DNA of 64,000 bases, taken from positions 64,001 through 128,000 of the forward strand of contig CAVUCU010000007.1 of the NCBI GenBank assembly GCA_963740085.1, given 5' to 3'. Position 1 is the stretch's first letter; each line of letters begins with the position of its first letter. Both the position numbers and the translations under genes were made by a program. This DNA is from Nitrospirota bacterium. GTDB taxonomy: Bacteria > Nitrospirota > UBA9217. The notes beneath the pieces are model-generated. The model saw only the letters and a list, made by a program, of their open reading frames with translations. It was not told the origin of the DNA and made no database searches. This document shows positions 3,693-10,526 of the stretch, piece after piece.

Positions 3693-4019
3693 AATCAAGC
3701 GGGCTACATCTGCATTTGCTGGAATGCCGTGAATTGCCTTGCGCGAGCTTTGAGCCGCAGAGGAAGTATCTCCCCTTGATACCGCTAAACGCGAAGATGG
3801 TCAGACGGCTCTGCGCTGGATACTGATGTTCGATGCCGTGACCTGCGCCTTCCCGGGAGCAAAGCGCCTGACACAGACAGAAGACAATATCGCTTCCCCG
3901 TCAATCGAAGGCGGTCCTTCCGCACAACATCCGCACAGCATGCTCTTGACAAACGGCCTTCATTGTCTTACTCTATACCTGCTTCAGACGAGAATGAACC
4001 TCAGGTATAACCCAATAAT

Positions 4020-5354
4020 ATGAACCCTATCTGTATAGTAGACGACGAATCTTCCATTTGTTCCACGGTAGCCAGCATCCTGAAGGACGAGGGATATCAG
4101 ACCATCGCATTTCCGGATGCGGAGAGCTTCTGGCAGGAACTCGATACCATGGAGCCCGCTCTCGTCCTGCTGGATATCTGGCTTCCCGGCATAGACGGAA
4201 TGCAACTCCTGAAACGTCTTCATGGCCGATTGCCCGCGCTCCCGGTCATCATGATGAGCGGACATGCCGGTATCGAGGCGGCGGTTGCCGCCATAAAGGC
4301 CGGTGCCTATGATTTTTTGGAAAAACCGCTGCACCTCGAGGTTTTACTCGACAAGGTGGAGTCTGCGCTTAAGCACAGCCCTTCCGTGAGCGGCGCAACC
4401 CTGCCGTCGGATACGAGGCTCGAGATCGTCAGCACCGACCTTTTGATGCCTCCCGGCATGGTGGACGTGGTGGATTCCCGCGAACCTCAGCGCACTCTCA
4501 GAAGGAATGTGGTCCTTAACGGCATAGGGCTCCTGAGCGGCCGGAACACCGGTATCATCCTGACCCCCCTCGGGATCAACGAAGGGATCATCTTTCAAAC
4601 TCTTGACGGTCAAACCATCCGTGGACATGTCACTTCCCTTGAGGATTTCTCCCGAAAAGTCCTGTCAAAGACCTTCGCCGCCAACTCCACCACACTGGAC
4701 AACGGGAGGCGGCGGGTGCGCACGGTTGAACATCTGATGGCGGTTCTTTCGATGTACGGAATAACCAACGTGCTCATAAAGGTCGACGAGGAGATCCCGA
4801 ACATAGACGGCTCCGCCATGGGTTTTTGCGGCCTCATAGAAGAGGCCGGGATAGAGGAACAGCCCGCCTTCACCAGGGTTGCGGTCATCCGTCAGAAGAT
4901 AGGGGTGGGAAACGAGGAGAAGCATGAAAAACACGTCTATGCAGAGCCCTTTGAGGGGTTCGAGATATCGATGCGGGTCGACTACCTTCCACCCATAGGC
5001 GAACAGGTCCTCACGTTCAATCCCGAAAAGGCGTCTTTTGCAAAGGAGATCGCCCCTGCCCGCTCCTTCAACACGTTTGAGAATATAGAAATGGCCCAGA
5101 AACTTGGAAAGGTCGGCGGCGGATATCTCAATTCGCACATCATCATGTACGATGGCAAGGTCATCAACACGGAGCTTCGTTATCCCGACGAATTCGTTCG
5201 CCACAAGATATTGGATCTGATCGGAGACCTCTACCTCCTCGGCTTCTCCATCAGAGGACGCTTTACCGCCAATATGACCTCGCACGGTTACAATCAGGCC
5301 ATGGTGGAACGCCTGTACCAGGCTATCCAGAGCAGCTCCGGGAAAAGACCGTAA
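4020..5354 (+). CDS. lpxC: Response-regulator receiver domain fused to UDP-3-O-acyl-GlcNAc deacetylase (REC-LpxC)
   Basis: N-terminal IVDDE, LLDIWLPGIDG, MMSGH, FLEKP; C-terminal QRTL...GIGLLSG, TVEHLMA, EIPNIDGSA, EIAPARSF, EFVRHKILDLIGDL. Confidence 0.92.
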   Translation: MNPICIVDDESSICSTVASILKDEGYQTIAFPDAESFWQELDTMEPALVLLDIWLPGIDGMQLLKRLHGRLPALPVIMMSGHAGIEAAVAAIKAGAYDFLEKPLHLEVLLDKVESALKHSPSVSGATLPSDTRLEIVSTDLLMPPGMVDVVDSREPQRTLRRNVVLNGIGLLSGRNTGIILTPLGINEGIIFQTLDGQTIRGHVTSLEDFSRKVLSKTFAANSTTLDNGRRRVRTVEHLMAVLSMYGITNVLIKVDEEIPNIDGSAMGFCGLIEEAGIEEQPAFTRVAVIRQKIGVGNEEKHEKHVYAEPFEGFEISMRVDYLPPIGEQVLTFNPEKASFAKEIAPARSFNTFENIEMAQKLGKVGGGYLNSHIIMYDGKVINTELRYPDEFVRHKILDLIGDLYLLGFSIRGRFTANMTSHGYNQAMVERLYQAIQSSSGKRP

Positions 5355-5397: not shown

Positions 5398-6165
5398 TCA
5401 GAATTGGAAATATTTCGTCTGGCCCTTCCCCACCGGCCTCGCAGTTTTCAACATCTTATCCACAAACTGTTTCGCCTTTTCCACAGCCTTTTCCACAGGC
5501 AGTCCCCGGGCTATGAACACGGTTATTGCCGAGGAAAGTACGCACCCGGTGCCGTGAAACTCACCCTTTCGGCGCGTTGTGGAGAAGCTGAGCACGGTTT
5601 TACCGCCGTATAAGGTATCGGTAGCGGGACCATACCCATGCCCTCCCTTGATCAGCACGTACGCCGGCCCCATGTCGAGGATCTTTCCGGCGGCGTAATC
5701 CATGTCCGCGTCTTTTCTGATCAGCATCTTTGCGAGGGTTTCTGCCTCGGGAATATTGGGTGTCACGATCAATGCCCGGGGGAGGAGTGCTTTCTTGAAT
5801 GAAGCGAGCGCGGCGGGCTGAAGCAGTGCCTTGCCTGAACTCGATCTGAGCACGGGATCGACCACGAGGTTCTTGATATTGTACTTTCCGAGGACCGCAG
5901 CCACGGCTTCCACATTCTGTCTGGTCAGGATCATTCCGGTCTTGACCGCATCAGGCCTGATATCCGACAACAGCGCATCGATCTGCTGCAACAATACCTT
6001 TGGTTTGATTGCGTGCGTCGCTGATACGCCCCTGCTGTTTTGGATGGTAAGCGCTGTTGGAATGGCCATGCCGAAAACGCCGAGGATTTGAAAGGTCTTC
6101 AGGTCTGTCTGAATACCCGCGCCCGAGGAGGGGTCGGAACCCGCTATGGAGAGGACTTTGATCAT
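5398..6165 (-). CDS. thiD: Hydroxymethylpyrimidine/phosphomethylpyrimidine kinase
   Basis: LSIAGSDPSSGAGIQTDLKT, TPNIPEA, IKGGH, HGTGC. Confidence 0.95.
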   Translation of the reverse strand: MIKVLSIAGSDPSSGAGIQTDLKTFQILGVFGMAIPTALTIQNSRGVSATHAIKPKVLLQQIDALLSDIRPDAVKTGMILTRQNVEAVAAVLGKYNIKNLVVDPVLRSSSGKALLQPAALASFKKALLPRALIVTPNIPEAETLAKMLIRKDADMDYAAGKILDMGPAYVLIKGGHGYGPATDTLYGGKTVLSFSTTRRKGEFHGTGCVLSSAITVFIARGLPVEKAVEKAKQFVDKMLKTARPVGKGQTKYFQF

Positions 6166-6263: not shown

Positions 6264-7115
6264 TTATTCCAATTTGAGCTTGATCAACTCAAGCGGGTCC
6301 ACCTTCGCGCCTTGCAGGCGCACGCCCCAGTGCAGGTGGGCGCCGGTAGCGCGGCCGGTGGAACCGACGAGTGCTATAACATCACCCTTCATGACTGCCT
6401 GCCCGTACCGGACGTTGATCTTCGAGAGATGAAAGAACATGGTGTAGATCCCCTGTCCGTGATCGAGAACAACACTGTTCCCCGAAAAGAACTGGTCATC
6501 AACCAGCACCACCACCCCGTCATTGGGCGCCAGCACCGGGTCTCCCTCGTCCGCCGTAATGTCAACTCCCGAGTGAGAATTCTTCGGAATTTTATTGATG
6601 ATCCTTCTGACGCCGAACGGGGTGCCGATCTTTTTCCCCGGCAGGGGGTCGATGAAGTTCCCCTTCCAGAAGCGCGCCGAGTCGACTGGCCATATGGCAG
6701 ATGTCTTTTTCTGGTCCCGCTCCGCTCTCGCCTCGTTCTCGGGCGAGAGGACCACCATGTCCTTGGGCAAGGTGAGCCGCTGGATCGGATACCTCTTCTT
6801 CCTGATTTTGATTTTTTTCAAAATCTTCTTGCCGTTGCTCATGACCTCAAGCGGATAGACCCCCGGCTCTCTGTTCAGGTCGATGCCGAGAACGGCCTTA
6901 TAGGAGGTCTTCGCAATATTAAAGTAAACCTTCTTGCCATTGAACGTGCCTTCCACCGGTCCGGCAACATTCGTGACTACGACGGTGACGATATCACCGG
7001 GACCGATCTGTTTCGGCTGTATAATGATCGTTGGCGGCGCACCGGTCGCAGCGCGAGCAAGGACGGGAGAAATAACCAGCGCAAAAATGAGTAAGATGTT
7101 CTTCAATGTCTTCAT
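6264..7115 (-). CDS. M23 family metallopeptidase, secreted
   Basis: Signal peptide; HSGVD and HLH zinc motifs. Confidence 0.9.
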   Translation of the reverse strand: MKTLKNILLIFALVISPVLARAATGAPPTIIIQPKQIGPGDIVTVVVTNVAGPVEGTFNGKKVYFNIAKTSYKAVLGIDLNREPGVYPLEVMSNGKKILKKIKIRKKRYPIQRLTLPKDMVVLSPENEARAERDQKKTSAIWPVDSARFWKGNFIDPLPGKKIGTPFGVRRIINKIPKNSHSGVDITADEGDPVLAPNDGVVVLVDDQFFSGNSVVLDHGQGIYTMFFHLSKINVRYGQAVMKGDVIALVGSTGRATGAHLHWGVRLQGAKVDPLELIKLKLE

Positions 7116-7135: not shown

Positions 7136-8458
7136 TTACTTCTTACTTATGGCCTCTGTCTTCTTTTCCCTGTCTTCTTTCTTCAAATATTTGCTCACGC
7201 CCTTCATGGAGCAGAACTCGCCGCACATGCTGCAGACGTCTGATTCCTGCGGCAGGCTTGACTCGCGCAGCTTGCGCGCCCGTTCAGGATTGATCGAAAG
7301 CTCGATCTGGCCTTTCCAGTCGAGCGCTTTGCGCCGGCGTGCCATCTCGTTGTCCCAGTCCATCGCGCCCCTGACACCCTTTGCGATATCCGCGGCATGA
7401 GCGGCAATGCGCGACGCGATCACGCCCTCGCGCACGTCCTCAAGGTCAGGCAGACGCAGGTGTTCGGAAGGAGTAACATAGCAGAGAAAATCCGCGCCGG
7501 CGGCTCCGGAGATCGCTCCGCCGATGGCCGAGGTGATGTGGTCGTATCCCGGCGCCACATCCGTAACGAGCGGACCGAGCACGTAGAATGGAGCTCCCTT
7601 GCACAGTTCTTTTTGAATTTTGATATTGGTTTCAACCTGGTTGATCGGGACATGGCCCGGTCCCTCGATCATCACTTGCACACCGGCTTCGTGCGCCTGG
7701 TCGCGCAGTTCTCCAAGGGTGATCAGCTCCTCGATCTGCGCCCTGTCCGTAGCATCGGCGAGACAGCCGGGCCGCATACCGTCGCCGAGCGAAAGGGTCA
7801 CGTCGAACTTCTTGCAGATCTCGATCAGCCGGTCGTACTGCGTGTAGAGCGGGTTTTCCCTTCCATTCACGACGATCCATTCGAGGTGGAACGCGCCGCC
7901 GCGGCTCACCACGTCCATGATCCTGCCCTGGCGCTTGAGCCGCTCCACGCTCGCGATGGTCACGCCGCAGTGCACGGTCACGAAGTCCACTCCCTCTTCG
8001 GCCTGCTGCTCGATCACGCGGAACAGCACCTCGGGGTCCATCTGTACGATCGATTTGCCCTGAGCCACGGTCTCGACAGCGGCCTGGTAGATCGGCACGG
8101 TGCCGATGGAAACCGTTGACTGCTTCAGGATCTCCTTTCGGATCTCGATGATCGGGCCGCCGGTCGAGAGATCCATGACCGCGTCGGCCCCGGCGGAAAC
8201 CGCGACCTTGAGCTTCGCGATCTCGTCATCGATCGACATCCGGTCCCTGGATGTACCGATGTTCGCATTGACCTTGGTTCGCAGACCCTTCCCGATCCCG
8301 AGCGGGGTGATCGACGTATGCCGGTTATTCCGGGTAATGACTATCGTCCCGTTGACAATTCCGTTCAATATATGTTCAACACTCACGCCCTCGGCCCTGG
8401 CCACCGCTTCCATCTCGGGAGTGATGTTGCCTTTTCGCGCTTCGAGTATCTGCGTCAT
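7136..8458 (-). CDS. thiC: Phosphomethylpyrimidine synthase (short-form ThiC)
   Basis: MTQILEARKG start; KVNANIGTS, SRGG, EGPGH, APGYDH, CSMCGEFC; within the TPP-controlled operon. Confidence 0.93.
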   Translation of the reverse strand: MTQILEARKGNITPEMEAVARAEGVSVEHILNGIVNGTIVITRNNRHTSITPLGIGKGLRTKVNANIGTSRDRMSIDDEIAKLKVAVSAGADAVMDLSTGGPIIEIRKEILKQSTVSIGTVPIYQAAVETVAQGKSIVQMDPEVLFRVIEQQAEEGVDFVTVHCGVTIASVERLKRQGRIMDVVSRGGAFHLEWIVVNGRENPLYTQYDRLIEICKKFDVTLSLGDGMRPGCLADATDRAQIEELITLGELRDQAHEAGVQVMIEGPGHVPINQVETNIKIQKELCKGAPFYVLGPLVTDVAPGYDHITSAIGGAISGAAGADFLCYVTPSEHLRLPDLEDVREGVIASRIAAHAADIAKGVRGAMDWDNEMARRRKALDWKGQIELSINPERARKLRESSLPQESDVCSMCGEFCSMKGVSKYLKKEDREKKTEAISKK

Positions 8459-8498
8459 AGTACACCTCGCTCCGTTTTTTAACCTGGTCCGATCCCGT

Positions 8499-9176
8499 TC
8501 ACCTGCGGCCGCACTGAACACAGATAGACCTGTCGACAATACGCACCATGTTGACGGTGTTCTGCGCCGCCTTCCGTATATCCTCCGCGCCAAAGATCGC
8601 TGAGATCATGGAAACACCATAGGCGCCGGCCCACAAGACATTGCCGATGTTCCTTCCTCGTATCCCGCCCAGAGCGAATATCGGGATCGAAACAGCTCTC
8701 TTTACGCCTCTTAGTGCCTCCAGCCCCACGGGAGCGCCGAGCTTCACTTTTGACGGCGTTTCATAGATGGGCCCGAACGTAATGAAATCAGCGCCTTCAC
8801 TCTCGGCAACAACCGCCTCGTCAACCGTGTGCGTTGATGCTCCGATCAGCATCTTCGTGCCGACGATATTCCTGACCGCTGACGGCGGCATACTCTGATG
8901 ACCGAGGTGGACGCCGTCGGCCACTGCTGCCACGGCAATGTCCACATGGTCATTAATGAAGAGCAACGCGCCAAATTCGTTCGTCAGCGCCCTCATCTCC
9001 TGCGCAAGGGCGAGCAACTCTCTGACCGGAAGGTCCCGCTCCCGCAGCTGTATCGCATGAACGCCGCCTTGAAGCGCCAGTCTCACCGCATCAGGAAGAG
9101 GCATCTTTGTCTGCTGACGGTCTGTAATAAGATAGAGGTTGAAATCAACGGCCAATGGACCCTCCGCAATAGGCAT
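8499..9176 (-). CDS. thiE: Thiamine-phosphate synthase
   Basis: LYLITD, IQLRE, DGVHLG, GASTH, GPIYETPSK, ALGGI. Confidence 0.93.
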   Translation of the reverse strand: MPIAEGPLAVDFNLYLITDRQQTKMPLPDAVRLALQGGVHAIQLRERDLPVRELLALAQEMRALTNEFGALLFINDHVDIAVAAVADGVHLGHQSMPPSAVRNIVGTKMLIGASTHTVDEAVVAESEGADFITFGPIYETPSKVKLGAPVGLEALRGVKRAVSIPIFALGGIRGRNIGNVLWAGAYGVSMISAIFGAEDIRKAAQNTVNMVRIVDRSICVQCGRR

Positions 9177-9235: not shown

Positions 9236-10015
9236 CTACGTCCCGATCATCCCGTCCAGCGGGCTGCTGGCCGTGGCATAGAGCTTCTTCGGGATCCTCC
9301 CCGCTTTGTACGCGAGACGGCCGGCAAGCACGCCGTACTTCATGGCCTCGGCCATCACGATCGGGTCCTTTGCTCCGGCGATCGCGGTGTTCAGCAGCAC
9401 GGCATCGCACCCCAGTTCCATGGCAAGCGCAACATCCGAGGCCGTTCCCACGCCCGCGTCAACGATCATCGGCACCTTCACGGTTTCCATGATGATCCTG
9501 AGATTGTACGGGTTCCTGATTCCGAGGCCGGAGCCGATAGGCGCCGCAAGCGGCATGACCGCGGGACAGCCGATGTCCACAAGCTTCCTGGCCATGATCG
9601 GGTCATCGCTCACATAGGGAAGCACGACCAGGCCTTCCTTCACCAGTACCTTCGCCGCCTCAAGCGTCGCTTCGTTGTCCGGAAACAGGGTCTTGTCGTC
9701 TCCGATCACTTCGAGTTTCACGAGCTTCGAGATTCCCGCCTCCGCCGCGAGCATGGCCGTGCGGATCGCGTCCTTTGCCGTGTAGCAGCCGGCGGTGTTC
9801 GGAAGGATCTTATATTTTTTCGGATCGATATAATCGAGCAGGTTATCTTTGCTCTTGTCGATAATGTTGACCCGCCGGACCGACACGGTCACGACATCGG
9901 TGCCCGAGACCTCGATCGCCCTCTTCGTCTCCTCAAAATCCTTGTATTTCCCTGTCCCCACCCAGAGCCGCGAACTGAACTCAATGCCTGCAATGGTCAG
10001 TTTGTCGTCAGTCAT
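9236..10015 (-). CDS. thiG: Thiazole synthase
   Basis: [42 protein letters not shown]. Confidence 0.96.
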
Positions 10016-10032: not shown

Positions 10033-10281
10033 TTATTCAATTTCCAGCATGCAATTTGTAATTTCCGATTGCGCTTGCGCGCACCCTCCCGCCATAAAGC
10101 TCACCACTTCCAGAACATCACCGTCCCTGATCGTTGTCTCGCCGTACCGGTCCTTCTTAACGATCTCCCTGTTCAGCTCGACCGCAACGCGCTGCTGCTG
10201 GACCTTCAGAAAATCGAGCAACCCGGGGACCGTAATGCCGCTCGGAACTTCTTTCTTTTCACCGTTCAGCGTTATGATCAT
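10033..10281 (-). CDS. thiS: Sulfur carrier ThiS with a 16-aa extension after the GG motif
   Basis: MIITLNGE...[11 protein letters not shown]...[14 protein letters not shown] followed by [16 protein letters not shown]. Confidence 0.88.
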
Positions 10282-10360
10282 TCGGCCTCTCCCTTTTTTG
10301 GACCAGGATAACCGCCTTAGCGTGATCGGCAACAACACGCCGACATGGTGGGCTCGATCC

Positions 10361-10395
10361 AAAAAACAAAAAAACCACGCCGGATGGCGTGGCTC
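10361..10395 (-). terminator. Intrinsic terminator, expression platform of the TPP riboswitch
   Basis: Minus strand: CCACGCC-ATCC-GGCGTGG followed by a T-tract. Confidence 0.75.
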
Positions 10396-10419
10396 GAAAA
10401 GGTTTTACACGATGCGCTA

Positions 10420-10516
10420 CTCGCCTTCCCTACGCCGGTACTACCCGGATCAGGTTCTAAGGGTCGTCCCTGATATCAGGACTCTCAGCCCCGCCCTGCG
10501 GGGCTCCCCCAGCTTT
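10420..10516 (-). ncRNA. TPP riboswitch
   Basis: Minus strand: GGGGGAGCCCC...GGCTGAGAG...GACCCTTAGAACCTGATCCGGGTAGTACCGGCGTAGGGAAG, upstream of thiS. Confidence 0.95.
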
Positions 10517-10526
10517 CTGTAGTGGT

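Follow-up and report, generated by a model that had tools for sequence, protein, structure and literature searches.

A receiver domain fused to LpxC in a Nitrospirota genome: a candidate phosphorylation switch on lipid A synthesis

A gene in a 64,000-nt stretch of DNA from a Nitrospirota bacterium (assembly GCA_963740085.1, contig CAVUCU010000007.1, positions 64,001 to 128,000 of the forward strand; the whole stretch is called the window hereafter) joins a response-regulator receiver (REC) domain to LpxC, the enzyme of the committed lipid A step. The initial annotation, made from the sequence letters, described it as one uninterrupted 444-aa open reading frame (ORF) with a complete receiver (DDE, LLDIWLP, SGH, KP) of NtrX-like signature and an LpxC domain that keeps the EH, HKxxD and downstream His residues. 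All of these elements were recovered here. The ORF starts with ATG and has no internal stop, and the opposite strand in the same register is interrupted by stops. The features of the gene are listed below.

4020-5354 (+): REC-LpxC fusion gene, 444 aa plus stop, ATG start
4029-4358 (+): receiver (REC) domain, residues 4-113, with the NtrX-type signature LLDIWLPG.DG, MSGH, DFLEKP
4173-4175 (+): codon of Asp52, the predicted phospho-acceptor (D in 70/73 fusions)
4359-4487 (+): linker, residues 114-156, length kept and sequence poorly conserved
4488-5318 (+): LpxC (UDP-3-O-acyl-GlcNAc deacetylase) domain, residues 157-433, from Pfam, NCBIfam and PDB alignments
4728-4733 (+): codons of Glu237-His238, aligned with residues 77-78 of the P. 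aeruginosa LpxC chain
5202-5216 (+): codons of His395 to Asp399 (HKxxD), invariant in a 65-sequence alignment and in 80/80 rows of the fusion clade
5283-5285 (+): codon of His422, aligned with P. aeruginosa His264
3946-3974 (+): promoter-like block, TTGACA (3946-3951), 17 nt, TACTCT (3969-3974), found by alignment

The Response_reg profile (PF00072) matched residues 4-113 over positions 1-110 of 111 (E 1.4e-28; 99.7 bits, cut-off 30.2), and the receiver motifs VDDE (D8, D9), LLDIWLP (D52), MSGH (S80) and EKP (K102) were all present. The top-scoring NCBIfam receiver model was NtrX (NF051870, 111 bits, receiver part only), and the top PDB matches of this half were the Brucella-type NtrX chains 5m7n and 4d6x. 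The NtrX-like signature is understandable because the family includes full NtrX-type regulator-LpxC fusions, which are described below. The LpxC profile (PF03331) matched residues 157-433 over positions 1-267 of 268 (E 2.8e-72; 243.9 bits, cut-off 27), and the NCBIfam equivalog model for lpxC (TIGR00325) gave 216.2 bits against a cut-off of 187.25. The enzyme half aligned end to end with the solved LpxC structures of P. aeruginosa and E. coli (E about 1e-42; 2e-42 for the P. aeruginosa chains against the fusion protein). Its motifs VEHL (E237, H238), RHKILDLIGD (H395, K396, D399, D403) and TSHG (H422) align with P. aeruginosa positions 77/78, 237, 238, 241, 245 and 264, which we take to include the general base, three zinc ligands and the second catalytic histidine. 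Glu237-His238 would presumably be the general base and a zinc ligand, with His395 and Asp399 of HKxxD as zinc ligands. All seven residues were invariant in 65 aligned sequences, and the LpxC catalytic residues were kept in every one of 80 fusion-clade rows. Neither the Sigma54_activat AAA+ domain nor HTH_8 had a Pfam match in the window protein (P0001), and the linker contained no HTH remnant. Eleven residues follow the LpxC domain, a short and variable tail. Upstream of the gene, the promoter-like block was kept in the two closest compared loci (L002, L124), with a weak -10 element; it was seen by alignment alone, and a consensus promoter scan of this upstream region listed nothing, the TTGACA block included.

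The fusion is real DNA and not an assembly artefact. In a search of 5.8 billion clustered proteins, both Pfam domains were found in all of the best 120 clusters (83-100% identity, 438-479 aa). A second search with a Bdellovibrionota-type seed scored 7999 clusters, of which 1514 had E <= 1e-60, and both domains were present in 119 of the 120 clusters listed. The fusion occurs in thousands of independent assemblies, and REC, linker and LpxC were bridged by contigs of public runs from two studies (X3 record 14, covering 4102-4923; X1 record 4, 4351-4707; X2 record 8, 4184-4483). The doubt raised at the outset, that the fusion could be unique to one genome with an unspanned junction, is answered by these results: other genomes carry it, and contigs cross the junction. 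The GC content of the gene (0.53-0.565) matches that of its flanks and thus gives no sign of horizontal transfer.

Broken copies were seen in three relatives. In two low-completeness, long-contig genomes of one genus (L173, G047:C6:213900-215900; L174, G048:C1:5000-7000), the REC and LpxC halves are frame-shifted within the linker, and in a third genome (G020:C14:235004-236330) the gene lies in two pieces with a TAG. Either indel errors explain these breaks, or the gene has truly been divided into a REC gene and an LpxC gene. Two other irregularities were rejected. The single TGA flagged inside the fusions of G010 and G068 is the stop codon itself and not selenocysteine or read-through, and a 1067-aa ORF in L013, considered as a kinase fusion, is a spurious upstream extension.

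The genome of the window (G000; 3.46 Mb, 7 contigs, 98.54% complete) has no other LpxC. A check for a second canonical lpxC had been proposed in the initial annotation, and none was found there by PF03331 search (one match, the fusion gene), by tblastn with canonical LpxC (no match other than the fusion) or at the syntenic site. Three genomes of the same genus (L086-L088) encode a canonical LpxC of 302-318 aa, 34-37% identical to the fused domain and with a tail of roughly 30 residues. The flanks of this canonical gene are colinear with one unbroken stretch of contig 1 of the window's genome, which is without lpxC; the slot measures 1245 bp in G008 versus 191 bp in G000 (G000:C1:1270343-1270534, outside the window). 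Since these flanks are colinear and contiguous, the loss of canonical lpxC is real and not an assembly gap. The genes lpxD, lpxA, lpxB, waaA and lpxK were all found above cut-offs as single copies clustered on contig 4, so the fusion gene, which lies on another contig, is as isolated from the other lipid A genes as had been claimed.

Loss of the canonical gene was not confined to this genome. Among the 64 genomes of the window's family (family f1; contig-end fragments counted as presence), the fusion alone was found in 20, fusion plus canonical LpxC in 23, canonical LpxC alone in 18 and neither in 3, which are 65, 87 and 92% complete. Completeness is 97% or higher in eight of the fusion-only genomes. 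The fusion-only genomes are spread over several genera that also include genomes with both, which indicates repeated loss of the canonical gene. Of 401 genomes sampled from the phylum, 44 had the fusion (E <= 1e-70): 41 of family f1, 2 of the 35 of f11 and 1 of f38. The two f11 fusions (G348:C3:1068264-1069583, G392:C4:1636495-1637829) are 84% identical to that of the window, the level found within the window's own family, and canonical LpxC is also kept in these genomes; lateral transfer is suggested for them. Full-length fusions were also found beyond the phylum, in metagenome-assembled genomes (MAGs) labelled Bdellovibrionota, Oligoflexales, Leptospirales, Pseudomonadota and Deltaproteobacteria/Myxococcota and in a closed 4.26-Mb chromosome. 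The fusion was the only LpxC-family match in all five other-lineage genomes tested, including the closed chromosome, and is likewise the only LpxC of G340, a genome from the window's phylum that is 94% complete. Because it has repeatedly been left as the sole copy beside a complete Raetz pathway, the fusion is almost certainly a working LpxC serving that pathway.

The receiver half is conserved as well. Across 73 fusions, D52 was kept in 70, K102 and S/T80 in 72 each, D9 in 68 and D8 in 67 (Glu in three more). Judged by these residues, the receiver looks live. Among seven distant members the identity was 59% in REC and 65% in LpxC, and 24% in the linker. The linker would fit a loose tether, and would also fit a receiver that acts on something other than the enzyme.

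No kinase lies next to the fusion in the window. Its neighbours are TauE, a 2'-5' RNA-ligase-like gene, ThiD and an M23 peptidase, so the first remark that an adjacent kinase is missing holds. None of the flanking genes recurs beside the fusion in L002-L013, and these loci have no common neighbour family. In three further loci (L094, L102, L119), an NtrY-type kinase with NtrY_N, HAMP, PAS, HisKA and HATPase_c domains is encoded directly upstream of the fusion in the same orientation, separated from it by 20, 41 and 215 nt, and a kinase fragment lies at the contig start in L107. In L094 (6857-7306) and L102 (7309-7749), the gene next after the ntrY-[REC-lpxC] pair encodes a DUF2203 protein. The plainest example is G340, where the order is DUF4390 - ntrY - REC-lpxC, and the stop of the kinase and the start of the fusion overlap by 4 nt.

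The receivers themselves point to the same kinase family. The signature LLD[IV]W[LM]PG.DG / SGH / DF.EKP is common to fusion receivers and to regulators encoded beside NtrY, and it is missing from the other NtrC-family receivers of the window's genome. In a receiver tree, all 67 fusion receivers clustered with 11 of 12 NtrY-adjacent regulators and with the orphan NtrX-like regulator of the window's genome (C1:595957-597327). The fusion receiver of G340 is, within that genome, the closest relative (59%) of a receiver encoded beside NtrY elsewhere. The window's genome also encodes one NtrY-type kinase without a regulator beside it (C1:395448-397913, outside the window), 36-38% identical over the full length to the operon kinases. 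We regard this orphan as a candidate partner of the fusion.

A related gene order was seen with unfused enzymes. At 15 metagenome loci, taken from a ranking by similarity to an NtrX-LpxC query, an unfused lpxC precedes co-oriented genes for DUF4390 (13/15), NtrY and, on contigs that extend far enough, an NtrC/NtrX-type regulator (L093, L096-L098, L101, L104, L105, L108, L109, L111, L117, L121, L123, L130, L139). The LpxC proteins of these loci are 39-98% mutually identical, mostly 40-50%, which indicates that the lpxC-DUF4390-ntrY-ntrX arrangement is old or recurrent.

The origin of the fusion was traced in a scan of 1.84 billion representatives, of which 472 had E <= 1e-30. Those closest to the fused LpxC domain were 42-50% identical to it, versus 33-40% for ordinary LpxC. 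They include 680-736-aa proteins with the Pfam order Response_reg + Sigma54_activat + AAA_lid_14 + HTH_8 + LpxC and 491-505-aa proteins with Response_reg + HTH_8 + LpxC. Sigma54_activat was found in the long relatives P0124, P0129 and P0131, and HTH_8 in P0124, P0125 and P0132. NtrX-type regulator-LpxC proteins of 680-749 aa were noted as P0124, P0126-P0129, P0131, P0133-P0135, P0138, P0139, P0141, P0143, P0148 and P0153, and the loci L089 and L090 likewise encode a whole NtrX-type regulator (REC, AAA+, lid, HTH_8) joined to LpxC. One source labels a long form 'NtrX', and where cluster members carry a name, they are Nitrospinota and Entotheonellia MAGs. Among 17 long forms, GAFTGA was kept in none and Walker A in 12; on these motifs the AAA+ module is evidently decaying.

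In a FastTree tree of 159 LpxC domains, all signalling-fused domains fell on one side of a single branch with support 95. The fused side held 48 REC-LpxC, 22 AAA-containing, 2 REC-HTH and 7 unfused or truncated rows, and the other side 79 canonical ones. IQ-TREE recovered the same single split with SH-aLRT 100 on a random subsample of 42 + 38 rows, in which three unfused rows were placed in the clade from the first tree. Four LpxC-only proteins of 283-292 aa (P0122, P0165, P0182, P0189) branch within the fusion clade and are either truncated calls on short contigs or cases of secondary receiver loss. In the simplest history, an NtrX-type regulator would have been joined to LpxC once, and its AAA+ and DNA-binding parts would then have been lost repeatedly. 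On this comparison the window gene is a trimmed NtrX-LpxC fusion, and the receiver-enzyme pair is apparently what selection keeps.

Taken together, our results suggest, with a probability of about 0.6, that the fusion is a working LpxC controlled through phosphorylation by an NtrY-type kinase. The direct two-component control of lipopolysaccharide (LPS) flux proposed in the initial annotation is thereby backed by comparative evidence, because the phospho-acceptor set and the catalytic residues are kept, the fusion is the sole LpxC, and an NtrY-type kinase gene precedes it in relatives. As the genome has no other LpxC, the committed lipid A step, and with it outer-membrane synthesis, is probably switched directly by a sensor kinase. 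An NtrX-type receiver would be tethered to the N-terminus of LpxC through a flexible linker of about 40 residues. The NtrY-type histidine kinase, in the window's genome the orphan described above, would phosphorylate Asp52, and phosphorylation of the fused receiver would alter LpxC activity. Lipid A flux would in this way depend on the signal, in the envelope or periplasm, that NtrY detects.

Response regulators with enzymatic output are well known. In the CheB methylesterase, the PleD/WspR cyclases and RpfG, phosphorylation relieves inhibition or drives dimerisation. These proteins share with the fusion the order of an N-terminal receiver, a linker and a C-terminal enzyme. Two generic routes could apply to REC-LpxC: the receiver may be docked on the enzyme and let go upon phosphorylation, or receiver dimerisation may shift the state of the enzyme. 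For the sign of control we lean weakly, by analogy, towards phosphorylation lowering LpxC output, because NtrYX represses lpxC in alphaproteobacteria. According to a 2025 review, this repression is transcriptional in R. sphaeroides and C. crescentus and lies within large regulons (PMC12444477). In R. sphaeroides without NtrYX, lpxC mRNA rose 8.8-fold and LPS increased, and no NtrX site was reported at lpxC (PMC7240162). These systems link the same kind of kinase and the same receiver family to LpxC. Their control is transcriptional, indirect and part of a large regulon, whereas the fusion has its receiver covalently attached to the enzyme and has lost the DNA-binding and AAA+ parts. Two-component control of lpxC is also described for a sulfate reducer, where the DNA-binding response regulator DVU2934 of Desulfovibrio vulgaris is reported to target lpxC (PMC4114195); there it is transcriptional and the proteins are separate.

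The gene order in G340 has a close counterpart. As described in PMC13001219, PlrP (DUF4390), PlrS (NtrY family) and PlrR form a three-part module in Bordetella and other beta- and gammaproteobacteria, in which the DUF4390 protein is the periplasmic partner of the kinase. The order is the same as the DUF4390 - ntrY - third gene of G340, but the third gene is the transcription factor PlrR/NtrX in the module and REC-LpxC in G340. The word 'lpxC' is absent from that paper, and a gene-order link between lpxC and a module of this type was not found in the parts of the literature examined. A wider reading can be put forward tentatively, with somewhat more against it than for it: NtrY-type kinases with periplasmic DUF4390 would at root be sensors of outer-membrane/LPS status whose most direct output is LpxC, and phosphotransfer to an LpxC-fused receiver would, in several phyla, have taken the place of both the canonical enzyme and the control of lipid A synthesis by proteases. 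Such a conserved NtrY-to-LpxC axis would unify the fusion series from NtrX-LpxC through REC-HTH-LpxC to REC-LpxC, the DUF4390-ntrY-[REC-lpxC] operon and the lpxC-DUF4390-ntrY-ntrX clusters.

Lipid A synthesis is controlled at LpxC, which is also a major target for antibiotics. The E. coli enzyme is under FtsH/LapB(YciM)/YejM proteolysis, and that of P. aeruginosa is activated by MurA. These controls use trans-acting proteins and a C-terminal degron, whereas the fusion carries a phospho-receiver in cis and a short C-terminal tail. More generally, every known control of LpxC (FtsH/LapB/YejM proteolysis, MurA activation, Lon, transcription) works in trans, and the controls vary with the lineage. 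If our reading is true, the receiver would act in cis on an enzyme that is the only LpxC in many genomes. This type of control would be new and simple to study by experiment, with a single protein to compare in its phosphorylated and unphosphorylated states. It also bears on the purpose of NtrYX systems, since fusion and gene order link this kinase family to LpxC across distant lineages, in agreement with alphaproteobacterial genetics earlier held to be indirect. The bifunctional LpxC-FabZ protein is likewise a natural LpxC fusion, but its partner is C-terminal and metabolic (a dehydratase), whereas here an N-terminal signalling domain is joined; the corresponding model (NF009667) scored 171.5 bits, below its cut-off of 465. 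The guess that similar fusions are annotated but uncharacterised agrees with what we found: the sources name them plain LpxC, so automatic annotation has overlooked the regulatory half, and no description of a receiver-LpxC fusion was found in the literature, supplementary files left aside. The words 'fusion' and 'receiver' are also absent from the 2025 review of lipid A regulation (PMC12444477).

Several observations weigh against control of LpxC by an NtrY-type kinase. The linker is long and poorly conserved, and the window's subclade (L002-L012, L124, L126, L127, L129) has no adjacent kinase. The grouping in the receiver tree had an SH-aLRT of just 83. An NtrY-type kinase ortholog is present in 60 of the 64 family genomes, with or without the fusion, so its co-occurrence does not discriminate between LpxC types. 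The frequency of the lpxC-ntrYX loci is biased by the ranking from which they came, although the arrangement itself is real. Among 17 listed public runs holding the stretch there was no RNA run. Canonical LpxC is kept beside the fusion in 23 of the 64 family genomes, in which the fusion need not be the main enzyme. Finally, the window's 14-row subclade is remodelled around Insert II and next to the active site.

The remodelling comprises replacement of the His19 equivalent by Leu (11/14), T by S (12/14) and G by N, F by T and A by H (14/14 each), together with a 6-residue insertion bearing a conserved Phe (residues 214-219). The window protein has Leu172 in place of His19 (H in 74/79 canonical rows) and Ser349 in place of Thr190/191 (T in 67/80 rows of the clade), His19 and Thr190/191 being, as we assume, residues of the LpxC substrate site. 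The remodelled residues 172, 214-219 and 349-373 correspond to about 4533-5140 of the window; they include Asn351 and Thr352, and His373 is gained. These changes could alter substrate fit, and they could reshape the acyl passage or form a docking surface for the receiver. At the position aligned with what we number as E. coli K262, M was found in 39/80 fusion rows versus K/R in 64/79 canonical rows. The fused enzyme could on this basis be a specialised paralogue for another acyl chain or a related substrate, used conditionally, with sole status reflecting a changed lipid A chemistry. The remodelling, the K262 difference and the retention of both enzymes in 23/64 family genomes speak for this view, but the TIGR00325 score lies above the equivalog cut-off, the catalytic residues are all kept, the other Raetz genes are single-copy and above cut-off, and several genera have repeatedly lost the canonical gene; we consider it unlikely. 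Slightly ahead of it, though still unlikely, is the view that the receiver sets the amount or location of LpxC rather than its catalysis, by phosphorylation-dependent delivery to a protease or by recruitment to the membrane or to NtrY. Protease delivery would replace the C-terminal degron route of E. coli. The fusion tail is indeed short and variable (11 residues versus roughly 30 in same-genus canonical LpxC), and the long, variable linker suits a tethered recognition module. LpxC control is moreover diverse among lineages, with FtsH/LapB, Lon and Ght named in PMC12444477. Gene context, on the other side, links no protease or adaptor to the fusion. This view shares the premise of a phospho-switch with allosteric control, and nothing here tells the two apart. 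LapB was dropped as a marker of the proteolytic route, as PF18073 gave 2 matches in all 10 genomes tested and also matched in Bacillus and other controls.

Two further explanations would remove the switch altogether. The receiver may be a non-signalling relic of the ancestral NtrX-LpxC fusion, a mere folding or dimerisation module on a constitutive LpxC. The ancestral AAA+ and HTH parts have in fact been lost or are decaying (in the long forms GAFTGA 0/17, Walker A 12/17), and the window's subclade is without an adjacent kinase. However, the phospho-acceptor set is kept in most of the 73 fusions, over several phyla, the receiver is conserved nearly as well as the enzyme (59% versus 65% in distant members), and operons with ntrY persist, which makes a relic improbable. 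Joining of two separate genes by assembly or gene calling has practically no chance of being right. The out-of-frame halves in G047 and G048 and the split in G020 would fit it, but both domains occur together in the best 120/120 clusters of the first search and in 119/120 listed from the second, contigs of other runs bridge the junction, and at E <= 1e-70 the match was full or nearly so in 41 of the 64 genomes of the family. Control of a working LpxC by an NtrY-type kinase is the reading that we prefer.

Downstream of the fusion gene, the window carries a minus-strand thiamine cluster. A TPP riboswitch (RF00059, 69.8 bits) lies ahead of it at 10409-10520 (-), and the genes are listed below.

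10033-10362 (-): ThiS-like ORF, thiamine cluster
9236-10015 (-): ThiG, thiamine cluster
8499-9176 (-): ThiE, thiamine cluster
7136-8593 (-): ThiC, thiamine cluster
6264-7115 (-): M23 peptidase gene, between ThiC and ThiD
5398-6165 (-): ThiD, thiamine cluster

The M23 peptidase is an odd member of this string of thiamine genes. Upstream of the fusion gene, an HTH_37/XRE-type small protein (144-524, +) and a ParE-toxin-like small ORF (1624-1935, +; E 1.2e-5) are encoded, which may be toxin-antitoxin remnants.

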